Assembly: GCA_943354835.1 (NCBI GenBank)
Contig: CALRDH010000003.1
Coordinates: 12,939-76,938 of the forward strand
Length of the DNA: 64,000 bases
Direction: 5' to 3'
DNA from: a candidate division WWE3 bacterium
Lineage (GTDB): Bacteria > Patescibacteriota > WWE3 > 2-01-FULL-39-13
A program made the translations under genes and the position numbers. A model generated the notes under the pieces. That model was not told the origin of the DNA. It worked only from the letters and a program-made list of their open reading frames with translations, and made no database searches. This document shows, one piece after another, positions 6,353 to 52,502 of the stretch. Position 1 is the stretch's first letter. Each line of letters opens with the position of its first letter.

Positions 6353-7919
6353 ATATTTTTGCAGAATTCCAAATAAAAAAGAGAGAATAAAAATCATTCG
6401 TGTTCTTTCTCTTGAGCTAGGGATACCGGAAATAAAAAGGAAGTTAAGTGTTTATGCTTATCATCCTAATGGAGATGAGGCACATATCTCTTTTGAAGAT
6501 AAGAACATATTTTTGAAATTTTCTTTAAAGAAGAATGAGAAAGAAGCAAAAAGCCCAAATGATAAAATTGAACTAAAAAACAAAAATGTTAAACTTATCT
6601 TTAAGTACATTGCTAGTTTAGGTTTTGAATCTGCGGTTATCGGGAAAATAATAAGGCTAAAGTTTACACATGAACAATATGGAAATACGACCTTTAGTTA
6701 CGATACTTTTATCGGAGATATATTAAATGTTGAAACTGTAGATAAAAACCTTTTTAAAAAGGTTGATAATCTTTTAAAGGCCCTTGGACATACGCTAATA
6801 AATAGTGAAGACAGGTCAACTTTAACGAAAGAAGTTGATAAAAGTTTAGAGCCGATAATAGATAAATACGGTGTGCTAAACTTCAAAATTACTGAATACG
6901 GTGATTCGGTTGCATTGGACTTAAAATCAAGTTCGGATTCGATTTCATCCAGAATCGGGAATTTTTCAAATGATTATTCATTTCATGAAAAGCCGTACTC
7001 GGATGTTGTAGACAAAGAATTACTTTCCACAGACAGCATCGCTGAGAAAAAACTTTTCACTCCGGTTTCCGTTGTTATTCCTTCTTATAACTCTGGCGAG
7101 ACTGTAGGGAAAACACTTCTATCTATAAACTCTCAAGATTTAACGGATGACCAGATGAAAATGGTAGATGTAATTGTCGTTGATGATGGATCTAAAGTAG
7201 CAGTCAAGGAATCGATCTCACATATTTTTGGAAAATTAAGATTTAAATGTACCGTGATTAGGTTAGAGCAAAATTTGGGGCTTTCTAGCGCTCGTAACAT
7301 AGGAATAAGTGCGTCGGCTGCTCAAAATATAATTTTTATTGATTCGGATGTATTACTTAGCAAAAACTATTTGCGGGAGCATGCTGTTAGGTTAAGTCTA
7401 ATACCGAATGCGGTGTTTGTAAGCTTTAAAAAAAATATTGAGAAAACTGATTCGATAGCAAAGGACTTAATTATTCAAAATGGGCTTGAGGTCCCTGATA
7501 CGTTTAATGATTTAAGGGTTCAGAGACTTATTAATAAGGATAGCCTTGGGTTAAAAGATGTTTTGGAGGATACGTATGTAGAGATATTATGTGATTCTGA
7601 CTATTTCAAAAAATTTGGATACGGAAGATTCATAGGGATATATGATCTTCCAGCCATGGTCATTGGACATAATTTTAGTTTGAGACGAAAAATAGTAGAA
7701 GATACTAATTATTTTTCAAAAAACTTTGTTGGATGGGGACTTGAAGATACATACTTTGGTGCACGTGTGATTGCAAATGGGAATTTTGTTATACCCATTA
7801 TATCAACTGGTGTTTATCATATAAATCATGCTCCACGTTCAGGTTCTGAAGAAAAAAAACACCAAGAACTTATCAAAAACTTATCCACGTATCAACATCT
7901 ATTAAAAAGAGAGTTATGA
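6345..7919 (+). CDS. Family 2 glycosyltransferase (GT-A fold) with a roughly 230-aa N-terminal extension
   Basis: 'VSVVIPSYNSGETVGKTLLSINSQ ... VDVIVVDDGS ... LGLSSARNIGI' gives GT2 DxD and substrate-binding motifs. Overlaps the upstream Nudix gene by 8 nt. Confidence 0.7.
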   Translation: MYKYFCRIPNKKERIKIIRVLSLELGIPEIKRKLSVYAYHPNGDEAHISFEDKNIFLKFSLKKNEKEAKSPNDKIELKNKNVKLIFKYIASLGFESAVIGKIIRLKFTHEQYGNTTFSYDTFIGDILNVETVDKNLFKKVDNLLKALGHTLINSEDRSTLTKEVDKSLEPIIDKYGVLNFKITEYGDSVALDLKSSSDSISSRIGNFSNDYSFHEKPYSDVVDKELLSTDSIAEKKLFTPVSVVIPSYNSGETVGKTLLSINSQDLTDDQMKMVDVIVVDDGSKVAVKESISHIFGKLRFKCTVIRLEQNLGLSSARNIGISASAAQNIIFIDSDVLLSKNYLREHAVRLSLIPNAVFVSFKKNIEKTDSIAKDLIIQNGLEVPDTFNDLRVQRLINKDSLGLKDVLEDTYVEILCDSDYFKKFGYGRFIGIYDLPAMVIGHNFSLRRKIVEDTNYFSKNFVGWGLEDTYFGARVIANGNFVIPIISTGVYHINHAPRSGSEEKKHQELIKNLSTYQHLLKREL

Positions 7920-9045: not shown

Positions 9046-9895
9046 TTCAGCAAAACAAAAGATAATACTTGATGCGAGTGAACGTATCATTAACGATTTT
9101 GTTAAACTCGATTTTGTAAAAGAATATATACCATGTATAAGTTTTTCTGCTATCAACGATAATATTGGGAATGTATTTACCTTCAACTTAATAGATGATA
9201 AAGAGGTTGGGTTCATTTTTTCAGAAAAAGGTGCTGTACTAAAGTATCCGCATAAAGAACTGGGATTGATGAATGACTTGGTTACAGTAATTGATTATTG
9301 TTTTGAGTATATAAGGAACATCGAGGATATTCATTGTGTTCACGGAAGTTCCTCTGCATTTGGAAATAAAGGAGTTGTGCTTATTGGTGCAGCAAGTGGA
9401 ATTGGAAAAAGCACAGTAAATTATCATCTAATCAAAAATGGTTTTACTTTTGTGAGCGATGAAAAAACATTGATTGATGGTAAAAACATAATCGGGGGTA
9501 ACACAAAGATTTCCTTTAACAAAGATTTAATAAAGAAGAATCATGATCAGGAATTAATTAATACTTTAATAAAAAGGTCTAATTTTATTGCAGATATACC
9601 AATAAAGCTTTTTGTTCAACCAGTAACAAATAAAAACGGTGATTTATATATTGATAAATGGGAACCTTTAAAGGCAGAATTTCACGTCTATGAAGAGTTA
9701 AGTAGAAAGATTCGAGGGATATCAAGAAGAATCTATAAATTCACATATCCACTTAATTCTATAGATACTCAATCACTCGCTGATGCAAGATCGATTAAGG
9801 CGAAGAGGATTTCAACAGAGATCCCTTTTTATGCTATTTATGGAGATCCGGAAGATGTTGCTGGTGAAATAGTGAATATATTAAGGAACTTGTAA
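9032..9895 (+). CDS. HPr kinase C-terminal-domain-like P-loop protein (putative Ser kinase)
   Basis: 'VHGSSSAFGNKGVVLIGAASGIGKSTVNYHLIKNGFTFVSDEKTLID' parallels the HprK core 'hHGs...G.GvLl.G.SG.GKS...L...G..lvsDD'. Confidence 0.45.
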   Translation: MLQINSAKQKIILDASERIINDFVKLDFVKEYIPCISFSAINDNIGNVFTFNLIDDKEVGFIFSEKGAVLKYPHKELGLMNDLVTVIDYCFEYIRNIEDIHCVHGSSSAFGNKGVVLIGAASGIGKSTVNYHLIKNGFTFVSDEKTLIDGKNIIGGNTKISFNKDLIKKNHDQELINTLIKRSNFIADIPIKLFVQPVTNKNGDLYIDKWEPLKAEFHVYEELSRKIRGISRRIYKFTYPLNSIDTQSLADARSIKAKRISTEIPFYAIYGDPEDVAGEIVNILRNL

Positions 9896-9897
9896 CT

Positions 9898-10599
9898 ATG
9901 GATTACATTAATGAATATATAGAAAAAAATCCTAATATGCATCTTGAACATTCAAATGATAAAGTCATTCAGCTATTGGCTGTATTGCCAAAGAATAAGA
10001 GATATAACCGAATACTAGATGTAGCTTGTGGGGCAGGTGCTATAACACTTGCGTTTGCGAAATCACTTGTCCCTAAATATATAGAAGGTATAGATATATC
10101 TCCAACAATGATAAATAAAGCTATACAGCTTGATAAAGAAGAAAAGGTTATATGGAAAATAATGGATATATTTCAATACCCAACGATACCAGAAAGATAT
10201 GATTTGATAGTATGTGCAGATATTGTAGAGCATTTGCATGACGACGCAAAATTTTTTGAGAAATTAAAAATATTAGGGAAGGCAGTAGTGATAAAAGTGC
10301 CATTGGAGGATTCCATTGTAACTAAAATAATCAGATACACGAAGATTTCGGATCCTTGGAAAGATACCGAGATAAGGTATGGCCATATTCACCATTACAG
10401 TGTGGATACCCTAGATCGAGTAATTATAAATTCTGGGCTGGGGATTAAAAATGTTGGTTATGCATATATGCCAAAAAGAACGAAACTGTTGTGGGAATTT
10501 TTAAGAATATTTTGTTATCCACTGATTATTTTAGGAAAGAGAAATCTTGTCAGAATAGTAGGTGGATTTAAAATTTACTATTTAGAAAGCACTGATTAA
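9898..10599 (+). CDS. Class I SAM-dependent methyltransferase
   Basis: Motif I 'ILDVACGAGAITLAF'. Motif II/III 'DLIVCADIVEHL'. Confidence 0.7.
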   Translation: MDYINEYIEKNPNMHLEHSNDKVIQLLAVLPKNKRYNRILDVACGAGAITLAFAKSLVPKYIEGIDISPTMINKAIQLDKEEKVIWKIMDIFQYPTIPERYDLIVCADIVEHLHDDAKFFEKLKILGKAVVIKVPLEDSIVTKIIRYTKISDPWKDTEIRYGHIHHYSVDTLDRVIINSGLGIKNVGYAYMPKRTKLLWEFLRIFCYPLIILGKRNLVRIVGGFKIYYLESTD

Positions 10600-15187: not shown

Positions 15188-16291
15188 ATGTCAAATGGCC
15201 AAAATCCCTTTCGCCTCAATGAATTAGCATTATCAGGAGATATCGAAGTACAATTTCCACAACCAAGTCGAGACATAAAATCATTAATTGCTGAAAAGTG
15301 CGGAGATGTAAGTGAAGGTGAACTAACCCAAATCACAGACCTGGACTATAAAGGACTTGATACATCGGACGGAACTACATTTTATCGGCTATATAACTTA
15401 GAAACTGAACGTGAAGACTTAAGATGCGCCCAAGATGTAGGAGAACGTATATTATCAAAATATGAACGAGAAAACGTCATTAAATCAGCATTTATTGAAA
15501 CTCTTCGATTTATTTCAAAATATATTCCAATGGAAAGGATTTTGGCAACATGTCCAAATCTTGATCTGGAAAAAATTGACGAATATGACTTTAAAAAAGC
15601 ACTACTTTATATATTTATTCTGTCAGATGAAGCATTTAATCTTATAAAAATTTCAGATGAAACACCACATTCGGATTTATTAAATAAAAGTGGATATCAC
15701 ATTGGTACTCACAAACCAGATAAAGAGCCAAAAGAAGGTCCACTTGGTCCAACAAAGTATATAAATACATCTGGAAAAAACTTAATTGTAATTAAAGAAA
15801 GAGGAACGGTAACAAATCAGTTGTCTACCAATTATGGAAGAAGCATGTGGCCCGAAGAATATAAAGCCCAAATTGTTGAGCAAGTACGATCAGTATTAAT
15901 TCATGAACTATTACATGATCTACAGATAGGGATACAATTTAATGACGAGCTTGAAGAGGCGCTTGTTGAATTCACATCTATATTAATAAATCTACAATCA
16001 AGACCAGGGAAATCTTCTCAAACTGCATATTCTACTGGCGTTGCATTCATAGAGAAAATGCTGTTAATGGGTGAGTTTTCTCCTGATGAATTATTGAGAG
16101 TGTACGTTTCACTAAACGAAGAATCAAAGACAATCGGAAAAAGAATTGCACAAACCCTTGAACGAAAATACGGATTAGATGCGACAAAAAGAATACTTAA
16201 TTTTACCTTTACAAATATGAACGATGCATTTGATTATATTTCAAGGTTAGAATCACAAGATCAAATTCCGCAAGAAGATTACTCAATATAA
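15188..16291 (+). CDS. Hypothetical protein with HExxH zincin-like motif (putative metallopeptidase)
   Basis: 'VRSVLIHELLHDLQIG' contains HELLH. No signal peptide. No other domain recognised. Confidence 0.4.
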   Translation: MSNGQNPFRLNELALSGDIEVQFPQPSRDIKSLIAEKCGDVSEGELTQITDLDYKGLDTSDGTTFYRLYNLETEREDLRCAQDVGERILSKYERENVIKSAFIETLRFISKYIPMERILATCPNLDLEKIDEYDFKKALLYIFILSDEAFNLIKISDETPHSDLLNKSGYHIGTHKPDKEPKEGPLGPTKYINTSGKNLIVIKERGTVTNQLSTNYGRSMWPEEYKAQIVEQVRSVLIHELLHDLQIGIQFNDELEEALVEFTSILINLQSRPGKSSQTAYSTGVAFIEKMLLMGEFSPDELLRVYVSLNEESKTIGKRIAQTLERKYGLDATKRILNFTFTNMNDAFDYISRLESQDQIPQEDYSI

Positions 16292-19453: not shown

Positions 19454-19531
19454 GGTGGTCTTAGCTCAATTGGTTAGAGCGCCAACCTGTGGAGTTGGAG
19501 GTTATGGGTTCAATTCCCATAGACCACCCCA
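19454..19531 (+). tRNA. tRNA-His (anticodon GTG) with genomically encoded G-1 and 3'-CCA
   Basis: Manual fold: acceptor GTGGTCT/AGACCAC, D-stem GCTC/GAGC, anticodon stem CCAAC/GTTGG with loop CTGTGGA (U33, GTG at 34-36), T-arm ATGGG-TTCAATT-CCCAT, discriminator C then CCA. The extra 5' G (19454) pairs with C73, the tRNA-His identity feature. Confidence 0.9.
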
Positions 19532-19709
19532 AGAAGAATCGTTAGCCAATGTTTCTTCAAATTTCCCTTTGTTTACAGGCAATCCGAGAGGTTCAGAGCT
19601 TTTCATAAGTCACCCTACTTGTGAAGCTCCCTCTGTAATCTTATCGAATTGTTTTATAAAGTTTTATTGAATATATTGAGATTACATAATCCTAAATGCC
19701 ACAAGTAGC

Positions 19710-21029
19710 TCAAAGTTTACCCCTTAATAATTTTTCAATAATATATGGATTTTCTTTTATAAAAATTTGACTATTTATAGTCCAATGTCCTAATTGCAAT
19801 GTGGTTAATCCCTCAAGAACTCCTGCTATTTTGTCTATCTGTATTGATACTTTTGTAATGGCGAAAGTTTGTTTTGGTTTTAATACTGTATTTCCATCTG
19901 AATTAGCAACTATTTCAACATCAAATAAAATTTCTACATTAGCGATTAGTCCAAAACATTTTTTGAACGCACTAAAAATTTGTTTCTCAGCAAATTTAAA
20001 ATAATCTTGCAATGCAAATGGAACATTTCTTAGCTCCATTCCATCCGATCGCATTTGATTAAAACTGAGCCACTTTCCGGTATTTACCCTAAATTCATTC
20101 GTAGTTACCTTAAGTTCACCAGTAAAATTATTGCTAAATACTAACCCAGTACAGTAATGTGAATGCGACCTGATTATCTTCACTTTACTTAAATCGGCTA
20201 TTTTAAGGCCGAATTCTTCATAACTTTCCACAGCAATGCCATATCTAGGATGATATGGCGTTGGATTAAAACCTCCAGCAGTCGCCAAACCATACGATCC
20301 TTCTGATTGATACCAAGTTTCGCCAACCGCAATATCTCCAAATTCATTGATATGTAGAATGCCGAAATTATGTATTTTACTTTTGTCTAGGTTTGAGATG
20401 AATCTACCTAATGTGATTTTCTTTAGAGATATCCCTGAAATTGCGCGGTTTAAACTTATTAAATCATTTTTAATTTTTACACGTTTAACGAATTTCCTGT
20501 AATTTGGAAGACACAGATTAGAACAATAATTCGGTCCTAAGTTTAAATTGTATTCCCGACCTATTTCTATCTTGTAAAATGGCGAGAGATTTTTTTGAAC
20601 ATGATCGTTCGCAAAAACATCCTTATAAATTTTTTCTAAATATGCAGATTTGCAAATTGAATATATTTCATACGCAAGCAAGTTGGCTAAAACATCGTTA
20701 AGATCAGAGTAGTTACGATGGTATCTACTAATCTTATGTTTATCATTTTCAACGATATTGATTTCATCTACTCCTAGTTGAGCTGCATATCTCTCTTCGT
20801 TTAATCTTAGTATAAATTCTGAACCTGCTAAATTTAAAACCATAGAGTCCCGCCCTTCTAGTTCAGTGAAACCTAAGAGATAAGGTATTAGAGGTTTTAA
20901 TCCTCTGTGGACGAATTTAAGATTCCACTTAATTTCCGTGAAATTATATTTCACATCGACTGAATCACAGCGTGTTAGTAATTTACTAACGGCAATAAGA
21001 TTTTCCACTTTGGAAATTGGATTAATCAT
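19710..21029 (-). CDS. Hypothetical protein (439 aa), downstream partner of the palm-domain protein
   Basis: Overlaps the upstream gene by 8 nt, so it is co-transcribed. No recognisable family. Contains 'GETWYQSEGSYGLATAGGFNPTPYHPRYG'. Confidence 0.5.
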   Translation of the reverse strand: MINPISKVENLIAVSKLLTRCDSVDVKYNFTEIKWNLKFVHRGLKPLIPYLLGFTELEGRDSMVLNLAGSEFILRLNEERYAAQLGVDEINIVENDKHKISRYHRNYSDLNDVLANLLAYEIYSICKSAYLEKIYKDVFANDHVQKNLSPFYKIEIGREYNLNLGPNYCSNLCLPNYRKFVKRVKIKNDLISLNRAISGISLKKITLGRFISNLDKSKIHNFGILHINEFGDIAVGETWYQSEGSYGLATAGGFNPTPYHPRYGIAVESYEEFGLKIADLSKVKIIRSHSHYCTGLVFSNNFTGELKVTTNEFRVNTGKWLSFNQMRSDGMELRNVPFALQDYFKFAEKQIFSAFKKCFGLIANVEILFDVEIVANSDGNTVLKPKQTFAITKVSIQIDKIAGVLEGLTTLQLGHWTINSQIFIKENPYIIEKLLRGKL

Positions 21030-22482
21030 AAATTGAGTAAAAATTTAATTTACCACCTATGATTTTAGATGATATCTGCGTATTCGGTTCTATCTTAATA
21101 ATGTCAGAAATAATACGAACTCCATAATTTTCTTTATTTCTCGGATCAGAAATTTCTCCAATAAGTAAATTTGATTTAGTTGGAAATACATATTTGACTG
21201 GTATTTTGTTAATATAGTTAGTTATTTCAGCAATCATTTCATCTGACTTAGAAAGTAACAATTCTCCAAGAGTATGGCTTGGGACAACTATAACCCTTAA
21301 CACACCATAATCATTATAAAACCTACATCTGCTATACACTTCGCGATTAAATTGATAAATACCTTCAATGATATTTTTGTGGATCAGGTGTGAAAAGATT
21401 GCCAAAGACTCCTCACCGAAAGCCTCTGAAATCCCGGACCAATTTACCCAACGGTATGAAACAAGATGTAAATTCTTAAACGAATCTTGCCCCGACAAAA
21501 TGCTATATAATTCAAGATCTCTTGTATATTCAACGTTATTCTTCACAATCTCAAACGGAGATTCTTCTGAATTAAGAGTTTTATATATCATTAACATAGA
21601 TTTTTGATCTGATATTTTATGTACATTTTGATCAAGAAATATACTTTTTCTTATCAAATCGGGATATAGATAATTCATTGAGCCGACGTCTTCAGATATA
21701 CAATTATCTCGAATAATTCTAGAACCTTCATCTTTGTTAAATTTATCAAGAATTGCAAGATTTTTTAAATCAATTATATTCGGATCTATATTTTTACACG
21801 AAGTTTCAATCCAATATTTATCCCAATTGAATTCGATTTGGCGTGATTTGATACGGTCACATTGTTCTATTTGTACTTTTAAATAAACCCCGCCTTTTTT
21901 TTTGCTTTTACTATGCTTAAGGTGACTCAGATGTGTGTTAATCGCAAAATTATTAATGTTAAAGATTGAGACATCCAAACTTTTGACAATCCCATCAATG
22001 TCATTGGTTATAACAAAAAAACTAAATTCATCAATTCCATCACGAATTAAAAGCAATCCTTTATTTTCAACTCGTCCAAGTTTATTTTCAAGAATGTCTA
22101 ATACATATCGAATATATTCTATAAGAAACTTATCTGTCTTGTCATACCTATGCATTGCTAAAGATAAATTGTACATATTCCCAAAATCGATCGAAATTTT
22201 ATAAAAAACCTGATTGTTAGCTTCTGCAATAATATGAGATAAGTCTTCAAAAAATGCATAGTACTGTCCATCAATTGAATTTGATTGACGATCCACAAAT
22301 ACAAAACTCGAGATGAGTTGCTTTAATATTTGATAATCAGAAAGTGAGAAATTGTATTGCGATTGTATAGACTCCGCTAAAATCTCTTCGAAATCATTCA
22401 ATAAAAAATTTTTAGTTAGCACTATGCTCTCTACCAATCTTGGATTTATCCTAAGTTTTCCTAATAAAGTATTTAAATTCAC
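21022..22482 (-). CDS. Hypothetical protein (486 aa) with N-terminal palm-type nucleotidyltransferase/cyclase-like motifs (GGDEF/Thg1-like)
   Basis: 'FYKISIDFGNMYNLSLAMHRYDKTDKFLIEYIRYVLDIL' resembles GGDEF 'DiDhFK.iND.yGH..GD.vL' and Thg1 'VVVRLDGRNFHRF'. 52 residues later, 'LLLIRDGIDEFSFFV' resembles GGDEF 'aRyGGDEFvvll' and Thg1 'IAYGQSDEYSFVF'. Roughly 330-aa C-terminal region unrecognised. Confidence 0.5.
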   Translation of the reverse strand: MNLNTLLGKLRINPRLVESIVLTKNFLLNDFEEILAESIQSQYNFSLSDYQILKQLISSFVFVDRQSNSIDGQYYAFFEDLSHIIAEANNQVFYKISIDFGNMYNLSLAMHRYDKTDKFLIEYIRYVLDILENKLGRVENKGLLLIRDGIDEFSFFVITNDIDGIVKSLDVSIFNINNFAINTHLSHLKHSKSKKKGGVYLKVQIEQCDRIKSRQIEFNWDKYWIETSCKNIDPNIIDLKNLAILDKFNKDEGSRIIRDNCISEDVGSMNYLYPDLIRKSIFLDQNVHKISDQKSMLMIYKTLNSEESPFEIVKNNVEYTRDLELYSILSGQDSFKNLHLVSYRWVNWSGISEAFGEESLAIFSHLIHKNIIEGIYQFNREVYSRCRFYNDYGVLRVIVVPSHTLGELLLSKSDEMIAEITNYINKIPVKYVFPTKSNLLIGEISDPRNKENYGVRIISDIIKIEPNTQISSKIIGGKLNFYSIYD

Positions 22483-22616: not shown

Positions 22617-23159
22617 ATGAATCAAGACCTCATTCAAAAATTATCACTCGAGATTATTAACATGGCCAAAGAAGATCAATCAGCAAGAATTGGCAAGAAT
22701 CTAGATTGGGCTAAAATCCAGTTGATTGATGATAAAAATAGACCAAGGATGAAGGAAATTATTGAAAAATATGGCTATATTTCTCCTTCAGTATATGGAA
22801 AGGATGCCGCAAAGAGTGCTTGGTTACTGATACAGCATTTTCCACCGACAGATTTTCAAACTATGGAATTGTACCTAAACTTCATCAAACAAAATCCCGA
22901 AGGATTTGATACAGAATCTCTTGCACTTTTCGAAGATAGAATAAATGTTTATAACAACAAGCCTCAAGTTTATGGCTCACAAGCCTACTGTCCTACAAAT
23001 TCAAAAACTTGGTGCTTCCGAGAGATTGTTGACATAAAGAACGTTGATAAAAGAAGAAAACAAATCGGACTTGTGTCATTGAAAGAGTATGCAAAGGTCA
23101 TGGAAAAATATTACCAATACAAACTCGAATTACCAAAAGGATATATAGAGCAATCGTAA
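22617..23159 (+). CDS. Hypothetical protein
   Basis: 180-aa ORF with TATAAT at 22605-22610, only 6 nt before the ATG (probably leaderless). Confidence 0.4.
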   Translation: MNQDLIQKLSLEIINMAKEDQSARIGKNLDWAKIQLIDDKNRPRMKEIIEKYGYISPSVYGKDAAKSAWLLIQHFPPTDFQTMELYLNFIKQNPEGFDTESLALFEDRINVYNNKPQVYGSQAYCPTNSKTWCFREIVDIKNVDKRRKQIGLVSLKEYAKVMEKYYQYKLELPKGYIEQS

Positions 23160-25207: not shown

Positions 25208-26182
25208 TTATTGCGTCGCTTCAAATTCTTGTATTAATGGTATAAGCGATAAATAATTCTGATACATATCAACGTATTTATCATCATATATAAGATCTCT
25301 GTTTCCGTATCCGCCAGTTTCATCAATCTTATATTTCCCATTTTCATCGATTGGCTCAACTTGGTATTCATATGCCGGAGTTCCTAAAGATCCCATGCTT
25401 ACCCATCTTTTTCTAATCCCTAAGATTGTGACTTCACTGTCGTTGTCTATTCCGCCAATCCAGGCTCTTTTCAAAGCATCGGTCAAAAACAGATATGAAT
25501 ATTTCCCATTCATTGATTTAAAAACTCTTGATGTAATTTTTCCATAAATATCAGATTCAGATTCCCAGGTTAAGACTAGATTATTAAAATCAGGTTTTTC
25601 ATTTTGCTCTATATAAATAGTTTCAGGAGCTGTTTTAATTTTAGTTTTATCAGCTGTGTAAATATCTCCAGAAATTTTTAAAGGGTCCTCAATAATCAAC
25701 TTAGAGTACATGGTATCAGTACCACTTTCCAAAGCTGTACCGTAAAATATTTGAATTCCTTCCATTTTATCAGCGATTTTAATTATGTCTTTATTTTGAG
25801 TAGAAATGAAGTACTGCAATTCAAATGGAAGCATTATGCTTTCTTCACTATAGCCTTTATCGTTCCAACTAGGTTGTTCATTACCTTCTTCATCAATCCT
25901 GTATTTATACGCTCTTAACAAACGATACAAACCCTGAGACTTACTCAAAAAGAAAGAGGAAACCAAATATTTTCCATCATCGCCTGCAATGTAAGCGATT
26001 AATCTTGGAACCTCATTACTTGCAATCTGAAATTTATCCGACAAATAAATGCTTCTACCTCCTATTGATATATGGTGTTTAGGAGAAAGCTTATATCTAA
26101 CTAAATCATCAATGGTTAACACTTTTTTATTAAAAGGACGCGAAAGGAAATAGGAATTGCTTAAAATATAATCAAATATCAT
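25208..26182 (-). CDS. Hypothetical protein
   Basis: 324-aa soluble ORF. No motif recognised. Confidence 0.4.
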   Translation of the reverse strand: MIFDYILSNSYFLSRPFNKKVLTIDDLVRYKLSPKHHISIGGRSIYLSDKFQIASNEVPRLIAYIAGDDGKYLVSSFFLSKSQGLYRLLRAYKYRIDEEGNEQPSWNDKGYSEESIMLPFELQYFISTQNKDIIKIADKMEGIQIFYGTALESGTDTMYSKLIIEDPLKISGDIYTADKTKIKTAPETIYIEQNEKPDFNNLVLTWESESDIYGKITSRVFKSMNGKYSYLFLTDALKRAWIGGIDNDSEVTILGIRKRWVSMGSLGTPAYEYQVEPIDENGKYKIDETGGYGNRDLIYDDKYVDMYQNYLSLIPLIQEFEATQ

Positions 26183-26212: not shown

Positions 26213-28753
26213 TCAATAATCCGAAATTACAAGCTCATCCCCTGCTTTTACTTCTTCGTTTATGATTTTGTCGGCAATTAGGGTTTCAATTTTATCCTCG
26301 ATTAATCGATTTAAAGGCCTTGCTCCCCATTCTCTTGAAAAACCTTCTTTGCTTAATTTTTCTATTAAATCTTGTCCATATATAATTTTGATTTTGTTCT
26401 TTTCCATCATTTTTTGACTTAGACCATTAAGTTTTATTTCTGTGATTTGCTTTACTTGATCCAAGGTCAATGGCGTAAATGGAACTAAAGCTGTGAATCT
26501 ATTTAAAAATTCTGGTGCAAAGTAGTCTTTAAGACCTTCGATTGTAATTTTTGTGATCTCATCTGGTGATTTATTTTCATCAATTGTTTTTATAACATCC
26601 TTTGTTCCAGCGTTTGTCGTCATTATTATAAAAGTATTAGTAAAATCAACGACCTCTCCAGTTGCGTCGCTTAATCGTCCATCATCTAAAATTTGAAGGA
26701 AAATATTTAATACATCTTTATTAGCCTTTTCAACTTCGTCTAAAAATAGCAATGAATATGGGTGCATCTTCACTTTCGACGTCAAAATTCCAACATTGCC
26801 ATTTGTGTCACCAATTAACCTGCTTAAACTTGAAGCGTCTTTAAATTCACTCATGTCGATTCGAGTAACAAGGTCTTCACGACCAAAATAATTTTTCGCC
26901 AAAGCCTTGGCCGTTTCGGTTTTACCAACTCCAGTTGGCCCAGAGAACAAGAAGCTTGCTATAGGTTTTTTATCATCTCTTACACCTGTTCTTGACCTTT
27001 TTAGAGCATTTACAATTAAAGTGATGGCCATATCCTGACCAATTACACTTTTGTGCAAAATTTCACCAAGAGTTTTTAAGATTTGTTTTTCATCTATATT
27101 TAAGGCAGAAACTGGAATATCAGCAGTTTGAGAAAAAACCTTTTTTAAAGTCGCTCGGTCTAGAATATTGCTTGAATTACCTTTTGAATTTGACACAGCT
27201 TCTATAAAAAGCTCAACAGCCTTGTCTGGCATTACACTTCTATGCAGATATTTTTTAGAAAGTGCTACAGATGTAAGAATTGCTGGAAAAGTCACAATCG
27301 GATAACCTTTAGTTCCACGACTTTTTTTGATTAATTGTTGGATTATTTCTATTGTTTCTGAATCTGTGGCTTCAGGCATATTTATATTATCAAAATCACG
27401 AGCAAACGAAGCTACTCCCGCAATATATTTTTCATAATCTTTCGCCGTTGTAGCACCAACAAATTGAAATTCGGCAGATGATAAATGAGGCTCAAATGCA
27501 TTAAATAGGTTTGTTTCTTTCGACTGGGCAAGTGTATGGATTTCATCTACGAATAAGATTATATTTCCAGCACCTAAGACCTCTTTTATTATATTTGTGA
27601 TTCTTGCATTAACTTCTCCAGGTGTTCCAGACTGAAGGGCCGTTGTATCAAGTTGAATTATTCTTTTGAATCTTAATGCCTGAATCTTAGTGCCTACAGC
27701 AATTTCACGAGCCATAGCGTGTACAAATGTCGTTTTTCCACAACCAGGTTGACCAACAAGCATTATATTGTTTCTCGAAGATTTACTTAATATATTGATA
27801 AATTCTTCTTTAACGATTTCTCTACCGACAAGTTTTGGCATTAAACCTTTTAGAGCAAGTTTAGTTAAATCTGTTCCGTATTTATTTAAATTGCTTGTAT
27901 ATCCAACGGCCCAAGATTTATCGATTCCACCTGCTGGTGGCAAGTTATATTCATCGCTCCAAATTGTTACTGGTTTTAATTTAAGGAAATTAGCAAAGTC
28001 TAATGAACCAATTATGTCTTGGCTGTTAATTTCAAATTTGTTTAAGAATTCATCGGAATCGACAAAATGTAGTAAATAACTCACAAATAATAATTCGTAT
28101 GTTAAATATGAGTGATTTTTGATTTGCGAATTTACTAAAAGGACTTTTTCGATAAAAAGTTTTGGATTTGCAGAGTTTTTATTTGCATCTAGATACTGAA
28201 AAACTGTTTCTGGTACAAGTTCTGCTATTTTTACAAACGTGATTATGCTTGCGTTCTTTTTGAAGGAATCAACAATGCTTTCGAACTTTCCTTTACTTAA
28301 ATTTTTAAATAGCAGTCGTAATGTGTGATCGCCAGCGCCTCCATATTCCTGAATTGATGCAGTATTTTTAATTTTGGAAATTGGAAAAAACAGAAAAAAG
28401 CAGATTCTATATGTGATTAAGAAAAGTACGAAACTTATACCAATCCAAAAATAATTGATCAAAAGATAAGGAATGCCTGCCAGAAGTCCTGCGTATACGA
28501 CAAGTCCGATGATAACACCACCTATCACAATTATTGTTGAAAGAACAATTGAAATTGTTCGAATAACAAAACCGTTAATTCTTGAGAAAATACCTGGAAG
28601 ACCAAACAAAGGCTTAAACAAACTTTTAATCATAGCCACCAAACCAAACTGATGGCTTAAAATAGCGGAAAGCCTATACAAAGAGCGGAAATACTTGCGA
28701 TGAAAATCGTATAAATAAAATCTAACGAGATATAAAAATAAATTAGAAATCAC
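26213..28753 (-). CDS. Membrane-anchored Clp/Hsp100-family AAA+ ATPase (two AAA modules) with N-terminal polytopic domain
   Basis: Four N-terminal hydrophobic helices over the first ~130 aa. Then D1 Walker A 'LVGQPGCGKTTFVHAMA' and Walker B 'ILFVDEIHTL'. Then D2 'FLFSGPTGVGKTETAKALA' with 'LLFLDEVEKA' and the sensor-2 'REWGARPLNRLIE'. Confidence 0.8.
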   Translation of the reverse strand: MISNLFLYLVRFYLYDFHRKYFRSLYRLSAILSHQFGLVAMIKSLFKPLFGLPGIFSRINGFVIRTISIVLSTIIVIGGVIIGLVVYAGLLAGIPYLLINYFWIGISFVLFLITYRICFFLFFPISKIKNTASIQEYGGAGDHTLRLLFKNLSKGKFESIVDSFKKNASIITFVKIAELVPETVFQYLDANKNSANPKLFIEKVLLVNSQIKNHSYLTYELLFVSYLLHFVDSDEFLNKFEINSQDIIGSLDFANFLKLKPVTIWSDEYNLPPAGGIDKSWAVGYTSNLNKYGTDLTKLALKGLMPKLVGREIVKEEFINILSKSSRNNIMLVGQPGCGKTTFVHAMAREIAVGTKIQALRFKRIIQLDTTALQSGTPGEVNARITNIIKEVLGAGNIILFVDEIHTLAQSKETNLFNAFEPHLSSAEFQFVGATTAKDYEKYIAGVASFARDFDNINMPEATDSETIEIIQQLIKKSRGTKGYPIVTFPAILTSVALSKKYLHRSVMPDKAVELFIEAVSNSKGNSSNILDRATLKKVFSQTADIPVSALNIDEKQILKTLGEILHKSVIGQDMAITLIVNALKRSRTGVRDDKKPIASFLFSGPTGVGKTETAKALAKNYFGREDLVTRIDMSEFKDASSLSRLIGDTNGNVGILTSKVKMHPYSLLFLDEVEKANKDVLNIFLQILDDGRLSDATGEVVDFTNTFIIMTTNAGTKDVIKTIDENKSPDEITKITIEGLKDYFAPEFLNRFTALVPFTPLTLDQVKQITEIKLNGLSQKMMEKNKIKIIYGQDLIEKLSKEGFSREWGARPLNRLIEDKIETLIADKIINEEVKAGDELVISDY

Positions 28754-32529: not shown

Positions 32530-33633
32530 TTCAGTAATTCCAGCAACACTAACCATAACAATGCCAAATAAACTTGGCAAAATATATCTTAAATATCTTT
32601 TATCCGAAACATTAACAAATAACATATACGTAATGAAAATAATAAATATTGATAATAAATATTTTTTCTTTTCTTTACTTTTTATATAAAAAGCTAGCAA
32701 TCCTCCAAACACAAAAACCGTCCAGAATATTAAAGTAAAATTTCCTCCTGCTAATTCGAAATAATATAAAACTCCGTTGTAATACCTTATGTGAAACGGA
32801 ACTAGACCGACAAGGTCATCAGTGATCCCACGCGAGGAAATTAATATATATTTAATTGTCTGTATTGGTGCAACCCACATAGGTGGATAAACGGCTATAA
32901 AGGTTAAAATCGAGATTAATAAAAATTTAAAGAAATTTAAGAATCCGTTTAGAAATCCTTTATACATAATAAATACAAATAAAATTGCGGGTAAAAATAA
33001 AACTCCCATAAATCTTGTCAAAAGCGCAAACCCGAAAAAAACAGCTGGCAGAACAAAAAAACGTCGTTTAGATCTTAAATAATCCAAAAGTCCGACTACT
33101 GCAGAAATCGTAAACATAAAAAATATAAAATCTAGGTGTAAATCCTTTGATAAATCAACGGATATTGGTTCAAATAATATTAAAAGCGACCATATAACAG
33201 AAGGAATAATTCCAAAAACACCGGCAAATAAAAAAACAGTATATCCAAAAAGTAATCCAGAGACTAAAACAAGCGGAAATTTTGCCCAATAAAGTTCATA
33301 ATTCAAATATGGACATTGATAATCCATATAGGCACATTCTTCATAATTTTTATCAGTCATAAATTTAATTTTTTTTGCAATTTTGTTAGAAAAGCCAGAA
33401 AAAGTCATTATGGTAACACCTGGATGATATGAAATATAGCCTGCATACCCTAAATCTTTACCTTCAATGTATCCACCTTTTAAATTTGTACTTACTATCC
33501 AAGGATAATAATTAATTCGATATAACCAACTAAAATTGTCTTCAAATGGAGGATTCGAGTTAAGACTTGTTAATCTAGTTATAAAAAATATAGCAACTAC
33601 AACAATTGCTAAGACTAACCTATAATTTTTCAT
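32455..33633 (-). CDS. Polytopic membrane protein, GT-C (PMT/ArnT)-like glycosyltransferase candidate
   Basis: 392 aa with about 10 TM segments and loop motifs similar to PMT-like proteins. Confidence 0.4.
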   Translation of the reverse strand: MKNYRLVLAIVVVAIFFITRLTSLNSNPPFEDNFSWLYRINYYPWIVSTNLKGGYIEGKDLGYAGYISYHPGVTIMTFSGFSNKIAKKIKFMTDKNYEECAYMDYQCPYLNYELYWAKFPLVLVSGLLFGYTVFLFAGVFGIIPSVIWSLLILFEPISVDLSKDLHLDFIFFMFTISAVVGLLDYLRSKRRFFVLPAVFFGFALLTRFMGVLFLPAILFVFIMYKGFLNGFLNFFKFLLISILTFIAVYPPMWVAPIQTIKYILISSRGITDDLVGLVPFHIRYYNGVLYYFELAGGNFTLIFWTVFVFGGLLAFYIKSKEKKKYLLSIFIIFITYMLFVNVSDKRYLRYILPSLFGIVMVSVAGITESKIFHYLKRFLSRFFPRIFSGQAL

Positions 33634-35104
33634 TCTTTATTAGAACTATTTTCGACTTTGTTAAAAATTTACCGCTTTGAAATGGTCCCATTATTGGATT
33701 TTTGCATGAAGCACAATTCTCATCGTCAAATCTAATTTCATACCTATAGTCGCTTAAGTTGACGTTATATAAGCTATTCCATGCGTGATCTGCTCGGATT
33801 AATTTCTTTTCTATTCCAAAACTTTCGGAAGTCGTATTTCCCAACTCCCATATTATATTTTGTCTCGAAATAAATTCCGATGAAAAATCTAAAGAAATAA
33901 ACCCCTCAAGGACGATGAATATTATTAAAATTTTGGAATTTATTTTGTAATCTGAAAGCTTCAATAACAAAAACATTGCAATTGGTATCAAGATTAAAAT
34001 ATACCTATCAAAAACAAAAGGATTAACAATTATTAAAAAAATACCAAATAATAATGAATAAAATTCAAACGAAATAGTAAAATTTTTAATTGACTTTAAA
34101 TTCATATTTAAAAAAGCAAATATCACCATTATAAAAAGCGAAAAAGAAGATATTAAATTAAAAATCGATGAATAGTTATATCCAGTCGGAGCTCCAGTAA
34201 GTCCCTGATAAAAAAATCCCATCGAAGTAAATACGTTTGGATAGTAAGGAAATATTTTCCATGGAAAATTTGTATTGATAAATAACAAATATAAGGCATA
34301 ACTAACAAGTAAAGTTGCTACTAAAACTAAAACATTTTTTAACTTATATAGCGTTGCCGTGAGTGTAATTGGCAATAAAAATATTGATATATATATTAAA
34401 CTCGCGAATATATTTGAATAGACATGTTTTATGCTATTTAGATTTTCAAATTTTATGCTTTTTTGACCAGTCATCTCTGATGTCATTGGAAATATAAAAA
34501 AGTAGAATGCTAAAACCATTATCAAAATCAAAAGGTTAATCATCGCAGGCCTATACTTTTTAGAAACTACTTGAGCTATAACAACACCTACTGGTATTAC
34601 TATTGCAGACTGTTTTGCGAGAAATCCTAATATCCAAGAAACACTAAGCTTAATATTTGAGCTCTTATTTGCAAAATATATAGACATTAAAATAAAAAAC
34701 AAAAGATAGATTTCAGTCATAAAGCCCCAAACTGAATATATAAAGATAGGGTTCAAAAATATTAGTAATCCAAGCAACGCACTATTTATTTTAGTTTGTT
34801 TGTAAAATTTATACGAAATTAAGGTCGTGACATAGAAACACGAGACCGCGACAAACAATGTCACCACAGGCAACAAGTTCAATGGAAATACAGATGCGAA
34901 TATCATACCCAAAACACCTTGTGTATAAAAAGTCGTCGCTGTAACAGAAAGTAGCTCAAAATTGCCAGTCAAAAACCTTGCAACACTAACATATCTATTC
35001 CAATCATCATTTTGCATGAATCTAATTGATATCGAAACAGGAAGAATCAATATAAAAAGAGCTAAAGCTACAAAGCCAATTTTAGAATACGATAAAAAGC
35101 GCAT
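33620..35104 (-). CDS. Polytopic membrane protein (GT-C/O-antigen-polymerase-like)
   Basis: 494 aa with more than 10 TM segments. Overlaps the downstream membrane protein gene by 14 nt. Confidence 0.4.
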   Translation of the reverse strand: MRFLSYSKIGFVALALFILILPVSISIRFMQNDDWNRYVSVARFLTGNFELLSVTATTFYTQGVLGMIFASVFPLNLLPVVTLFVAVSCFYVTTLISYKFYKQTKINSALLGLLIFLNPIFIYSVWGFMTEIYLLFFILMSIYFANKSSNIKLSVSWILGFLAKQSAIVIPVGVVIAQVVSKKYRPAMINLLILIMVLAFYFFIFPMTSEMTGQKSIKFENLNSIKHVYSNIFASLIYISIFLLPITLTATLYKLKNVLVLVATLLVSYALYLLFINTNFPWKIFPYYPNVFTSMGFFYQGLTGAPTGYNYSSIFNLISSFSLFIMVIFAFLNMNLKSIKNFTISFEFYSLLFGIFLIIVNPFVFDRYILILIPIAMFLLLKLSDYKINSKILIIFIVLEGFISLDFSSEFISRQNIIWELGNTTSESFGIEKKLIRADHAWNSLYNVNLSDYRYEIRFDDENCASCKNPIMGPFQSGKFLTKSKIVLIKNEKL

Positions 35105-38968: not shown

Positions 38969-41128
38969 TTATTTAGTACTTCCTAGCAAGACGTCTGATT
39001 TAGAAGATCCGTCTACTGTCACAAAAAAGCCAGAATCATCATAATCAACAACTATCTTGCTACCTTTTTTAGCAATATCATCAATAATTGCTTCTGAAAT
39101 CTTATTTTCTACACTTTTTTGAATCAGACGCTTTAATGGCCTTGCTCCCATATCCAAACTATAACCATCTTTCACCAAAGAATCTTTAGCCTTTTTTGTA
39201 ACTGAAACCTCAATATCACTTTCTGAAAGCAATTTAGCGACAGAATTTATCTCAATATCAACAATTTCTTTAACTTCAGACTCGCTTAACGGCTTGAATA
39301 TAATAATATCGTCAATACGATTCAAAAATTCAGGTTTAAACCTATTTTTTAGAGAATCTTGCAGACTATGCTTTATTCTTTTGTAAGCATCCTCAACTTT
39401 ATCGTCACTTTCAACATTCATGCTTAATTCTGAAAAACCAATCTTTGCGTGGTTTAAAAATTCAGAACCAACATTTGAAGTCAAAATAATTATTGTATTT
39501 TTGAAATCTACAAGACGACCATGCCCGTCTGTAAGCCTGCCATCATCCATAATTTGCAAAAGTGAATTGAAAATATCTGGATGCGCTTTTTCTACTTCAT
39601 CAAATAAAATAACGCTAAAAGGTTTTCGTCTAACCTTTTCTGTTAATTGACCGCCTTCATCGTATCCGACATAACCAGGAGGCGATCCAATAAGTCTTGC
39701 AACATTATGTCTTTCGTTATATTCACTCATATCAACACGAATAAGATAATCTTCAGATCCATATAAAACTGTTGCTAAAGCCTTTGCCATTTGCGTTTTA
39801 CCAACCCCAGTTGGGCCTAAAAACATAAAAACACCAATTGGTCTATTAAGTGGCTTAACACCAGCTCTTGCTCTTCTTATCGACTGTGAAACTATCTCTA
39901 CGGCCTCTTTTTGACCAACAACCATTTTCCCCATTTCGGATTCAAGATTTTTGAGCTTCTTTTTTTCATCTAGCGATAATTCACTAAGAGGAATTCCGGT
40001 TGCAGTAGAAACTACAGCTGCAACATGTTCAACTTTCAAAATTGGGACATTTTCAAGCTTAGTTTGGACCCATAAAGCTGTAAGTTCGTTTTTGACTTGG
40101 CTTAATAATGTAATTTTATCCTCGATCACTTGTCTTTTAACATCGTCTATTTCTTTTCTTGATTGATCTTCTAAACTTTCAATCTGCGTTAAAACTTCCC
40201 TTAAATTTTCAGGCTCTTTTAACGAAAGTTGAAGTCTTAAACCTGCGCCTGCTTCATCTATTAGATCAATTGCTTTATCAGGTTGAAATCTATCTGAAAC
40301 ATATCTTGAAGAAAGCTTTACAGCTGCCTCTAAAGCTTCATCGCTGATTATTATCTTATGATGTTCCTCATATCTTTTTCTTAAACCCTCAAGGATTTTA
40401 AATGTGTGTTCAGGTGAAGGTTCTTCTACCAAGATTTGTTGAAACCTTCTTTCTAAGGCTGCGTCTTTTTCTATAATTCTATATTCCTTTAGCGTTGTTG
40501 CACCAATCAATTGCAGTTCACCACGTGCCAAATAGGGCTTTAAAATATTAGATGCATCCATTGAACCTTGTGCACTTCCAGCACCGACCAATGAATGAAC
40601 CTCATCTATAAATAAAATTACCTGACCTTTTGTTTTTATAACTTCTTCAATAACTTCTTTTAACCTTTTTTCAAAAGATCCACGGTGAACAGTTCCTGCA
40701 AGCATTGCTGCTAAATCAAGTGCTACTAAGCGCTTTTTTCGCAAAGGCTCTGGAACCATATTTTGAACTAACTTTTGAGCAAGGCCTTCTACAATTGCTG
40801 TTTTTCCAACACCAGGCTCACCAATTAAAACTGGATTATTCTTTTTACGTCTTGATAAGATATGAATAACACGATCAATTTCTGCTTCACGTCCAATAAC
40901 AGGATCAAGATTTCCTTCTCTTGCATATTCTGTTAAATCTTTGCTGAATTGATTTAATGATTCTGTACCTTCTGATTCTTTTTGAAGCTCCGAAAAACAC
41001 TGATCACACAATGGCATATAGACAAGTCGCCCATTAATATTCATTGCTGTTTGTTGTTTTGCTTCCCTCTTTCTACAGTTGGAACACACGACCATAATTT
41101 TACCTTTCCCCAAAATATTATCACTCAA
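38969..41128 (-). CDS. ClpC/ClpB-like Hsp100 AAA+ chaperone with N-terminal C4 zinc ribbon (no Clp_N repeats)
   Basis: 'CSNCRKREAKQQ ... MPLCDQCF'. D1 'LIGEPGVGKTAIVEGLA' and 'ILFIDEVHSLVGAG'. A coiled-coil middle region. D2 'FMFLGPTGVGKTQMAKALA' and 'ILFDEVEKAH'. Confidence 0.85.
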   Translation of the reverse strand: MSDNILGKGKIMVVCSNCRKREAKQQTAMNINGRLVYMPLCDQCFSELQKESEGTESLNQFSKDLTEYAREGNLDPVIGREAEIDRVIHILSRRKKNNPVLIGEPGVGKTAIVEGLAQKLVQNMVPEPLRKKRLVALDLAAMLAGTVHRGSFEKRLKEVIEEVIKTKGQVILFIDEVHSLVGAGSAQGSMDASNILKPYLARGELQLIGATTLKEYRIIEKDAALERRFQQILVEEPSPEHTFKILEGLRKRYEEHHKIIISDEALEAAVKLSSRYVSDRFQPDKAIDLIDEAGAGLRLQLSLKEPENLREVLTQIESLEDQSRKEIDDVKRQVIEDKITLLSQVKNELTALWVQTKLENVPILKVEHVAAVVSTATGIPLSELSLDEKKKLKNLESEMGKMVVGQKEAVEIVSQSIRRARAGVKPLNRPIGVFMFLGPTGVGKTQMAKALATVLYGSEDYLIRVDMSEYNERHNVARLIGSPPGYVGYDEGGQLTEKVRRKPFSVILFDEVEKAHPDIFNSLLQIMDDGRLTDGHGRLVDFKNTIIILTSNVGSEFLNHAKIGFSELSMNVESDDKVEDAYKRIKHSLQDSLKNRFKPEFLNRIDDIIIFKPLSESEVKEIVDIEINSVAKLLSESDIEVSVTKKAKDSLVKDGYSLDMGARPLKRLIQKSVENKISEAIIDDIAKKGSKIVVDYDDSGFFVTVDGSSKSDVLLGSTK

Positions 41129-50772: not shown

Positions 50773-50958
50773 TTATTTCCTTTTTGATAACAAAATTACT
50801 CCGAACACTACAAATAAAAGTGGCCAAAGTTTCCACATGGTTTCCCATACGCCATATTCTATGATTCCAAAATTATTTAGGATCATTATAACCCCTAGGA
50901 TTATTAATATAACCGCGGCCCAAAAACCTGAGTTTAGTTTGTTTTCTTTTGTTTCCAT
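50773..50958 (-). CDS. Small two-TM membrane protein
   Basis: 61-aa hydrophobic ORF. Its start region overlaps the 3' end of the ThyA-like gene by 25 nt. Confidence 0.35.
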   Translation of the reverse strand: METKENKLNSGFWAAVILIILGVIMILNNFGIIEYGVWETMWKLWPLLFVVFGVILLSKRK

Positions 50959-52502
50959 GACTTGATTGTATCAAATTCTAACGGATTATCTTGTGTAAAT
51001 TTAAGACCTAATTTTATTGCCGTTTCGGCTCTTTCTAATTGCCTGCCAATATATAGTGCATTTCCTAAAGTTGATATGGCAAGTCCATTATCGATTTCAA
51101 ATGAAAGTAGTCGTGATGCATACTTTTTGTTTCCATCAATCCGCCATTCTTTTATTTCTTCGTTTCCCCTCGGTGTCATCCATCTAACAACGATTTCGTC
51201 ACCTTCGACCATTACGCTTAAATTTCCTCTAGGATCCCATTCGCAGTATCCTTTGTCATTTTTTTCGTATAGTTCTTTTGCATCCTGATAATTATGCTCA
51301 TAAATATGTGCCATGTTAGAAATTGTTATTAACGAGCCCATTTCGACACCAAGTTCACTTGCAATTTTTGATTGGAGTTTTCTTAGTGCAAAAGCGTTTA
51401 ATGGCCATGCGTTGTACATATCGTTGCTTCTGAAATATGCCGTTTGTGTTAATTTCCCTTCGTATATTTGGCATTGAATCAAAAATAAACATGGAGTTTT
51501 TGTAGGCGGCCTTTTTGGAAAAACATCTGTAAATGGATTTGCTAAAAGCGCGATTGCTCCTTTATCGTATTTGAAACCTTTTAATTTTCTAACGATTGAA
51601 ATAGCAACTTGATCAAATCCTCCGTTTGTAAAAAATTCATCGAATCTTTCAAGTTTTAACCATGGATAAATTTCTTTAAGGGCATCGATTTCCAAGTGTG
51701 CAAAGTTAAATAACCTTTCACCATATGTGTAATCCTCTGTATGCGGATCTGGATCAAAAAATCCTTTAAAATATTTTTCTAAATCTTCTTTTGAGAATGG
51801 CAGATATTCTGGAACATGCCAATTTTCTGGGTCTTCGTCTGTAACAACTGCAGTCAGATTTAGCATTTCTTTCATTGTTTTTGATGTATCAGAAACGTAA
51901 TTTATAACGGCTTCAGATTCTAAACCAAACATGCTTATGTGTTTTAGTATTGAAATATAGGCTTCAGCAATTGTAGGACGCCTTATTTTTGTGGAATCAA
52001 TTTCGCTTGGATAATTTTGTACATCGGCCTTTGGCGGATCGGGGAAAATCTCGGGCTCACGCCATTTTATAGGGGCTACCCTTTTTATCAGTATGTCATT
52101 AAGTTTCTCAACGCCTATCATGTCTATAACTTCTACGTTTTTGCGAAATGCCTCAAGTGCTTCACGTGGTATTTCCTTTTCGATTTTCGCAATGTCATCG
52201 CCGATTACTTTGTAATCGGCATCGACGCCATTTTTCATAAAACGCAAAAACGCTTCACCGCTTCCCATTAAATCACTTCCAACAAGATATAATTTTGTAA
52301 TAACTGGATTTGCAAGAATATTTCGTAATATGTAATTTATGCCTTTTTTTGTATAAAGCTGGCCGGCGATATAAAAATCATCGGGGTCAACCATTTTCTC
52401 TAAAGTTTCCTTTGGAGTCCACAAAGTCGCAATCGCAACACCTGAATCGGGATTTGATAAAGTCAAACGGTCCTTAAAATAAATCGGCCAAGACATAAAC
52501 AA
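50934..52502 (-). CDS. Thymidylate synthase (ThyA) family protein with long N-terminal (~300 aa) and C-terminal (~100 aa) extensions
   Basis: Catalytic core 'TPCLFLIQCQIYEGKLTQTAYFRSNDMYNAWPLNAFALRKLQSKIASELGVEMGSLITISNMAHIYEHNY' aligns with ThyA '[41 protein letters not shown] ... GDTHLYSNH' (Cys nucleophile, RS-D, N..AS, H-Y-NH). Confidence 0.6.
   Translation of the reverse strand: MFMSWPIYFKDRLTLSNPDSGVAIATLWTPKETLEKMVDPDDFYIAGQLYTKKGINYILRNILANPVITKLYLVGSDLMGSGEAFLRFMKNGVDADYKVIGDDIAKIEKEIPREALEAFRKNVEVIDMIGVEKLNDILIKRVAPIKWREPEIFPDPPKADVQNYPSEIDSTKIRRPTIAEAYISILKHISMFGLESEAVINYVSDTSKTMKEMLNLTAVVTDEDPENWHVPEYLPFSKEDLEKYFKGFFDPDPHTEDYTYGERLFNFAHLEIDALKEIYPWLKLERFDEFFTNGGFDQVAISIVRKLKGFKYDKGAIALLANPFTDVFPKRPPTKTPCLFLIQCQIYEGKLTQTAYFRSNDMYNAWPLNAFALRKLQSKIASELGVEMGSLITISNMAHIYEHNYQDAKELYEKNDKGYCEWDPRGNLSVMVEGDEIVVRWMTPRGNEEIKEWRIDGNKKYASRLLSFEIDNGLAISTLGNALYIGRQLERAETAIKLGLKFTQDNPLEFDTIKSWKQKKTN

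Follow-up and report, generated by a model that had tools for sequence, protein, structure and literature searches.

The described enzymes that come closest to the gene pair reported here are the GGDEF diguanylate cyclases (PF00990), such as PleD, WspR, DgcZ and TM1788. Many, although not all, of these proteins carry an inhibitory RxxD site, located five residues ahead of the GGDEF motif, and their guanine-specific residues are those numbered N335 and D344 in PleD. We analyzed a window of 64,000 nucleotides (64 kb) from contig CALRDH010000003.1 of a candidate division WWE3 bacterium, and studied two adjacent genes in it, hereafter A and B. All positions are those of the window unless another contig is named. 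At a probability of roughly 45%, we interpret the pair as an obligate two-gene module in which A would be a divergent, probably active nucleotidyltransferase with a palm of the GGDEF/Cas10 type that makes a nucleotide signal, and B its dedicated partner. Two immune systems offer a looser parallel. Cyclic oligonucleotide-based antiphage signaling systems (CBASS) use CD-NTases of the Pol-beta fold, whereas A has a palm, and Pycsar systems use class III-like cyclases that make mononucleotides. Neither A nor B is matched by PADLOC models, and all that would be held in common is the logic of a nucleotide-signal synthase and a partner in one operon.

Gene A (21022-22482, minus strand) encodes 486 amino acids from a GTG start and gene B (19710-21029, minus strand) encodes 439 amino acids from an ATG start, both as called open reading frames (ORFs). 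The genes overlap by 8 nucleotides at 21022-21029, minus strand (ATGATTAA; 'tATGATTAA' holds the ATG of B and the TAA of A), a classic layout that is consistent with translational coupling. Together they form a cassette of 2.8 kb encoding two soluble proteins. An earlier model-made reading of the window (the original prediction) had described the same pair of ORFs, and we reproduced its coordinates and the overlap. It had also stated that neither protein matches a family it could name, which was borne out: searches of A and B against Pfam, NCBIfam, PADLOC and PHROGs returned zero matches, even at E ≤ 10, and scanning the domains of both proteins separately against the same libraries gave nothing useful. 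In a promoter and terminator scan, matches were no commoner than in shuffled sequence.

The layout of A comprises a helical N-terminal region (approximately residues 1-70), a candidate palm, a poorly conserved linker (approximately residues 215-300) and a conserved C-terminal domain. We consider it very likely that the second of these parts (approximately residues 85-210; 21853-22230, minus strand) is a palm of the GGDEF type whose metal site is intact. Its strand-1 motif, ISIDFGNMYN (residues 96-105; 22168-22197, minus strand), contains D99, the putative metal-binding aspartate, followed by G101 and N102. The counterpart of RxGGDEF is the hairpin motif RDGIDEFSFF (residues 147-156; 22015-22044, minus strand). 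D99 and D151 are 52 residues apart. A third segment, HSKSKKKGGVYL (21880-21915, minus strand), precedes the last palm strand and contains H190-S191-K192 and G197-G198, which are invariant in the alignments. Across homologs of A from four lineages that are 25-29% identical overall, D99, G101, N102, R147, G149, D151, E152 and S154 are all invariant, and the residue after D151-E152 is always F or Y. Invariance of the motif residues at this level of identity indicates that the motifs exceed chance. It also confirms the two palm motifs, correctly spaced, that had been picked out in the original prediction. The metal site of GGDEF enzymes, a strand-1 aspartate and an acidic pair preceded by arginine in the hairpin, is present in A, and the predicted palm (β-α-α-β-β-α-β) can be superposed on GGDEF domains.

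The palm of A is connected to the GGDEF family through an intermediate. A profile of A, searched with HMMER against all 1.84 billion cluster representatives, matched a GGDEF domain of a protein designated P0010 at E = 7.8e-7; the match covers only residues 82-209 of A. P0010 itself is recognized by the Pfam GGDEF model (PF00990; E = 3e-17, 63 bits, with a cut-off of 23.8) and also matches diguanylate cyclases in the Protein Data Bank (PDB), e.g. DosC, so that A, P0010 and PF00990 form a transitive homology link. Through P0010 and DosC, D99 of A aligns with the aspartate of the 'DxD' of diguanylate cyclases. We also compared the A family alone with four PDB GGDEF sequences using hhalign. The alignment placed ISIDFGN on FVDLAGFK and IRDGIDEF on ARYGGDEF, in register, with a score of 22.8 (P = 0.005), whereas 60 column-shuffled controls scored 11.9 ± 2.5 with a maximum of 20.6. 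With P0010 added to the A family, the probability was 75% and P was 2.6e-5 over 123 columns. In a Foldseek search with the model of A, the best matches, at E of about 1e-2, were GGDEF domains and one chain, most likely Cas10, from the type III effector complex of S. epidermidis. The bridge through P0010, the register of the hhalign alignment and the invariant catalytic positions support the original assignment of A to the palm enzymes.

P0010 belongs to a type of tandem GGDEF protein and is the nearest sequence relative of the A palm outside the A family. It is encoded at 10001-11767 of contig L006, from a JGI metagenome, is 588 amino acids long and is annotated as 'diguanylate cyclase (GGDEF)-like'. 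A long low-complexity N-terminus is followed by two tandem divergent GGDEF domains, both of which read ...DIGNL.G[LM]NARLG..GA... and ...FRHGGDE[VI]S.... The neighboring genes encode a PAS histidine kinase, PrsW, PP2C and a response regulator. In both P0010 and A, D-I-G-N-[LM] replaces DxDxFK, and both have a PH[ST]K.G..G segment (PH[LT]K.GR.PG in P0010), with H-[S/T/L]-K....G-G before the last palm strand in each. P0010 has two palm units per chain, which keep RHGGDE and the guanine-type asparagine, and it passes the Pfam GGDEF cut-off; unlike A, it has no B-like gene adjacent.

Relatives of the pair are few. Word-indexed searching of 5.8 billion protein clusters turned up two relatives each for A and B, and the HMMER search with the A profile retrieved six proteins. 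Full-length relatives of A among the six are P0002 (68% identity), P0007 (about 29%) and P0006 (25%); P0008 and P0009 are short gene calls covering the C-terminal domain only, and the sixth, P0010, is matched in its GGDEF part only. On all nine contigs found, a homolog of B lies directly after A. Identity of the B homologs to that of the window is 63-65% for L001/L004 and L003, 33% for L002, 32% for L005, L007 and L008, and 32% for L009 and L010. About five lineages are thus represented, 25-35% identical, and all keep a strict gene order. At the junction, the genes overlap by 23 nucleotides in L001 and by 8 nucleotides in L005, L007 and L008, and are separated by gaps of 4-5 nucleotides in L002 and L010. 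We did not detect the family in 185,579 GTDB genomes (one per species), in IMG/VR or in GenBank phages; scans of GTDB genomes (twice), metagenome contigs, IMG/VR (twice) and GenBank phages (tblastn) recovered only the already known L001. The absence from 185,579 GTDB species indicates that the pair is not universally conserved housekeeping. The original prediction had left room for homologs that never co-occur, or for a housekeeping pair conserved universally at this position; we found A followed by B on every contig, and none of the GTDB species with the pair. The carriers are a few rare, small-genome bacteria, and because A and B always occur together in them, the two genes probably form an undescribed signaling or defense module.

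Some gene calls in the family deserve comment. The public calls of the A homologs in L001 and L003, represented by P0002 with 465 amino acids, start 20 codons late (L001 1763-1822; L003 240-299). Extension with tblastn leads to a GTG start and an N-terminus, VNLNTLLGKLRINP..., as in A of the window. The A homolog of L010 has an in-frame TGA at 345-347, and that of L009, from a different sample, has one at the same position, near the start of the contig. The frame is otherwise continuous (...LLKKDI*KILHVYDISWLNWGG...) and ends with TAA, and gene callers split it, yielding a 136-amino-acid 'fragment' (P0008/P0015). The shared TGA points to a lineage in which UGA encodes an amino acid (code 25 or 4, as in Gracilibacteria or Absconditabacteria) or to a shared nonsense mutation.

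Although its palm is of the GGDEF type, A departs from diguanylate cyclases in several respects. It passes no Pfam threshold and has no sensory domain for input. The HSK...GG segment is invariant in A, a large C-terminal domain is added to the palm, and B is an obligate partner encoded downstream. There is no RxxD site in A, where the residues upstream of R147 read VENKGLLLI, with equivalents in the relatives. In alignments of DosC, P0010 and A, the position of the guanine-reading asparagine is occupied by Ser (window, L001 and L005) or Gly (L002), and the position of the partner aspartate shows no conservation across the four lineages. According to the paper on Panoptes (PMC12657218), Ser at this position reads adenine and Asn reads guanine in Cas10 and GGDEF enzymes. 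Because the base-reading site is Ser in three of the four lineages, as in Cas10 and mCpol, ATP is by analogy more likely than GTP to be the substrate of A. Of the features of diguanylate cyclases in the strict sense (cyclic di-GMP synthases), A is missing both the guanine Asn/Asp pair and the RxxD site.

The conserved C-terminal domain of A (approximately residues 305-460; 21103-21570, minus strand) is strongly conserved and is marked by the invariant motifs W.NW.G, I.KN..E..Y, FY[N/D]D.G.L and Y.N..P.KY, and by a further conserved motif, R....G. In the low-confidence AlphaFold2 (AF2) model, it has strands at residues 339-344, 386-391, 394-399, 432-434 and 438-441 and helices at 348-355, 358-385 and 408-426. 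The resulting order, β-α-α-β-β-α-β(-β) with a helix before it, repeats that of the N-terminal palm, again at low confidence, and FY[N/D]D falls on the hairpin equivalent to the GGDEF position. The model suggests that the C-terminal domain may be a second palm in degenerate form; A would then be a pseudo-dimer within one chain, comparable to Cas10 or P0010. A profile of this domain had zero matches in PDB.

Protein B is soluble, with an isoelectric point of about 9 in three of the four lineages. No hydrophobic segment of transmembrane grade was detected in B, and one borderline stretch occurs in the L005 homolog only. A variable insert at approximately residues 178-205 precedes a strongly conserved core (residues 220-345). 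Invariant residues are H41-R42-G43, D61, R158-E159-Y160, C169, E237, E243-G244-S245, G252-G253, E268-S269, E272, E312, R334 and D342, a pattern that looks like that of an enzyme or a specific ligand binder. Searches with five divergent members and with sub-fragments of B found nothing in Pfam, PADLOC or PDB sequences. Across the PDB sequence searches with profiles of A, its N-terminal and C-terminal domains and B, the matches were noise only (a MetRS C-terminal domain, AriA and a lactonase). Comparison of B with palm profiles and with the domains of A gave no signal. The invariant H41 and C169 raised the idea of a caspase-like His...Cys protease, for which we found no supporting evidence and which we do not claim.

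If the pair is a signaling module, A would bind nucleoside triphosphates, probably ATP, at a GGDEF-type two-metal site and link nucleotides to form a small signal molecule, cyclic or linear, the acceptor site being provided either by its second domain or by a dimer partner. A pseudo-dimeric A could link two nucleotides without homodimerizing, like Cas10 or tandem cyclases. The product may be a cyclic dinucleotide or oligonucleotide or a similar nucleotide signal, and B, made in a fixed ratio from the coupled gene, would be a dedicated receptor or effector or a regulatory subunit. The pair could then serve as an accessory, possibly antiviral, module in Patescibacteria-like bacteria. A signaling or defense role would be plausible. 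We regard a more specific proposal as doubtful, namely an undescribed immune or conflict system based on a nucleotide second messenger, with a probably adenine-using, pseudo-dimeric, GGDEF-derived cyclase and an effector or receptor whose fold would be new to signaling systems.

We compared the pair with the systems of Cas10 and mCpol (Panoptes). Cas10 is a weaker fold match to A than GGDEF, no cas gene was present among the neighbors scanned, and B lacks the transmembrane segment of a 2TM-beta effector and has no CARF domain. PADLOC gives nothing for A or B; the release dates from 2023 and is older than Panoptes. In the literature on GGDEF and mCpol systems and on GGDEF proteins in Patescibacteria, we found nothing resembling the pair. 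The A-B family, its architecture (a helical N-terminus, a minimal GGDEF-like palm and a large conserved C-terminal domain), the altered pocket and the orphan partner are in none of the libraries searched. The superfamily of the catalytic domain is an established one. An active A would be a branch of its own among the GGDEF/Cas10 palm enzymes, with its own substrate pocket, possibly a fused second palm and an obligate partner unlike any known protein. If the proposed function is correct, nucleotide-signal synthases would extend beyond diguanylate cyclases, Hypr-GGDEF, Cas10 and mCpol, and B would add a new receptor or effector fold. The carriers are ultra-small, uncultured bacteria, in which signaling and immunity are almost undescribed. 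The extreme rarity of the pair limits its general importance, and the small 2.8-kb cassette of two soluble proteins makes it directly testable.

The window belongs to the ordinary chromosome of a bacterium with a small genome and low GC (about 33%). The genes to one side of the pair are RarA, TsaE, TsaD, a 95-amino-acid coiled-coil ORF and tRNA-His, and on the other DUF6624, a DUF883-like protein, a small membrane protein, a PMT-type glycosyltransferase, a 324-amino-acid protein, ClpB and a NUDIX protein; DnaE, CTP synthase and GatA/B are farther off. At the other loci the neighborhoods are unrelated. L001 has DUF6624 (twice), an rve transposase, a strong PADLOC PDC-S18 match, a NUDIX protein, a kinase and a methyltransferase. 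Those in L002 are a PIN_12 protein (a weak PDC-S34 match), PGA_cap and a Pif1/RecD-like helicase. In L005 and L007, uvrA and uvrC flank the pair, and L007 also has uvrB and lexA upstream. B is followed by two genes, which encode 314 and 380 amino acids in L005 (7454-9610) and 144 and 181 amino acids in L007 (12685-13874), all without family matches. As these genes differ between close relatives, the spot is variable. Candidate defense genes occur near the pair in L001 and L002, and none near the pairs of the window, L005 and L007, although the loci are few. The sporadic spread and the variable context are suggestive of an accessory, possibly conflict-related, cassette.

The PDC-S18 match of L001 is a NucS-like/DUF5655 protein (6701-7576, minus strand) located 2 kb downstream of B, which matches this PADLOC candidate defense family at E = 5e-67, and the rve-family transposase lies at the contig end (2-619, plus strand). 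In the window, DUF6624 is divergent beside A (22617-23159, plus strand; E = 1e-22), and in L001 two copies, one of them a fragment, flank the pair at 645-884 and 9796-10362. We considered DUF6624 as a third component and rejected it. It is absent from L002, L005 and L007, and is therefore probably left-over synteny and not a core part.

Several observations weigh against a signal-making A with B as its partner. In the A family, the second glycine of GGDEF is replaced by Ile or Leu, the only motif position that is replaced. Neither A nor its palm has a direct Pfam GGDEF match, even at E ≤ 10, and the A profile finds no cyclases in PDB; the sequence link to GGDEF depends on a single bridging protein, P0010. 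The AF2 models are poor (predicted local distance difference test scores of 44 and 38), which makes the fold evidence suggestive only, and Foldseek found nothing for the A model at E ≤ 1e-3. Comparisons by hhalign of the N-terminal with the C-terminal domain and of the C-terminal domain with GGDEF gave P values of 0.26-0.47, and 10 of 40 shuffles scored as high. This null result leaves predicted secondary structure and the motif analogy as the sole basis of a second palm. We also rejected an internal duplication within A, because its two domains aligned no better than shuffled alignments. B matches no nucleotide sensor or effector (SAVED, CARF, TIR, nuclease or pore), has no transmembrane segment and retrieves nothing from PADLOC. 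The neighbors in the window (TsaD, TsaE, RarA and ClpB) and in L005 and L007 (UvrA and UvrC) are housekeeping genes. Finally, the product and the phenotype are predictions that come from sequence.

These observations leave room for other explanations. The pair may be a nucleotidyltransferase or polymerase with no part in signaling, acting on a nucleic acid or a protein by template-independent tailing, priming or nucleotidylation, perhaps in connection with DNA damage or repair, with the basic B holding the substrate. We judge this unlikely, since the nearest sequence and fold relatives of A are cyclases and not polymerases, the repair-gene neighbors vary by locus with none recurring, and B has no detectable nucleic-acid-binding domain. 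Loss of the base-binding residues, G-[I/L]-D-E-F in place of GG[D/E]EF and the lack of a direct Pfam match would also fit a catalytically dead, GGDEF-like scaffold or receptor, of which many are known among degenerate GGDEF proteins, in which case the enzyme-like invariant polar set of B would point to B as the protein with the real activity. However, both metal positions and the arginine two residues before the first glycine are invariant at about 25% identity, which is not expected of a dead site, and the RxxD site used by degenerate GGDEF receptors is absent from A. A dead A is thus distinctly improbable. That the motif resemblance is due to chance, and A has an unrelated fold, is in our view highly improbable: the low-confidence AF2 model and the lack of a direct Pfam or PDB sequence match would permit it, and the invariance of the motif residues described above argues the other way.

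The explanation to which we give next to no weight is one that the original prediction had offered as its second possibility, namely that A is a Thg1-like 3'-5' polymerase acting on the neighboring tRNA-His, to which it would add G-1 or which it would repair. Thg1 belongs to the same palm superfamily and has an analogous pair of acidic motifs, and A adjoins a tRNA-His gene in the window. This gene, tRNA-His(GTG) at 19454-19531 (plus strand), is a neighbor only, outside the module. It is convergent with B, 178 nucleotides from the B stop, and encodes its own G-1, the g at 19454 opposite the discriminator C73, as well as the CCA. A G-1 encoded in the tRNA gene is the usual bacterial arrangement and requires no G-1 addition. 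The adjacency is found in the window only, as a tRNA scan of L001, L002 and L003 found zero tRNAs. Thg1 is absent from the fold matches, Pfam Thg1 (PF04446) is unmatched, and no sequence or fold match of A to Thg1 ranks above the cyclases. The encoded G-1, the lack of a conserved tRNA and the lack of a Thg1 match largely refute the Thg1 alternative.

ARAGORN and Rfam each confirmed that this tRNA-His is the single tRNA in the 64-kb window, as had been claimed. The start given earlier, 19454, needs a small adjustment: the tRNA-His is present, but 19454 is the encoded G-1, and ARAGORN and Rfam start the gene at 19455 (19455-19531, plus strand). The tRNA-His had also been proposed as the insertion point of an island, a proposal that was not borne out and that we rejected. 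The 3' end of the tRNA is not duplicated anywhere in the window, and the roughly 10 kb next to the tRNA on the side of A contain no meaningful direct repeats. There is no shift in GC content, no integrase is present among the genes scanned around the pair, and the tRNA is absent from L001-L003.

Other parts of the window contain further genes of interest. Three ORFs of 324, 367 and 494 amino acids (25208-26182, minus strand; 15188-16291, plus strand; 33620-35104, minus strand) have no Pfam match. Two Clp/Hsp100-type double-AAA+ proteins of 846 and 719 amino acids (26213-28753 and 38969-41128, both minus strand) are encoded within 15 kb. A 522-amino-acid ORF (50934-52502, minus strand) combines MtrA-like, thymidylate-synthase-like and pterin-binding (DUF4346) regions in an unusual fusion.

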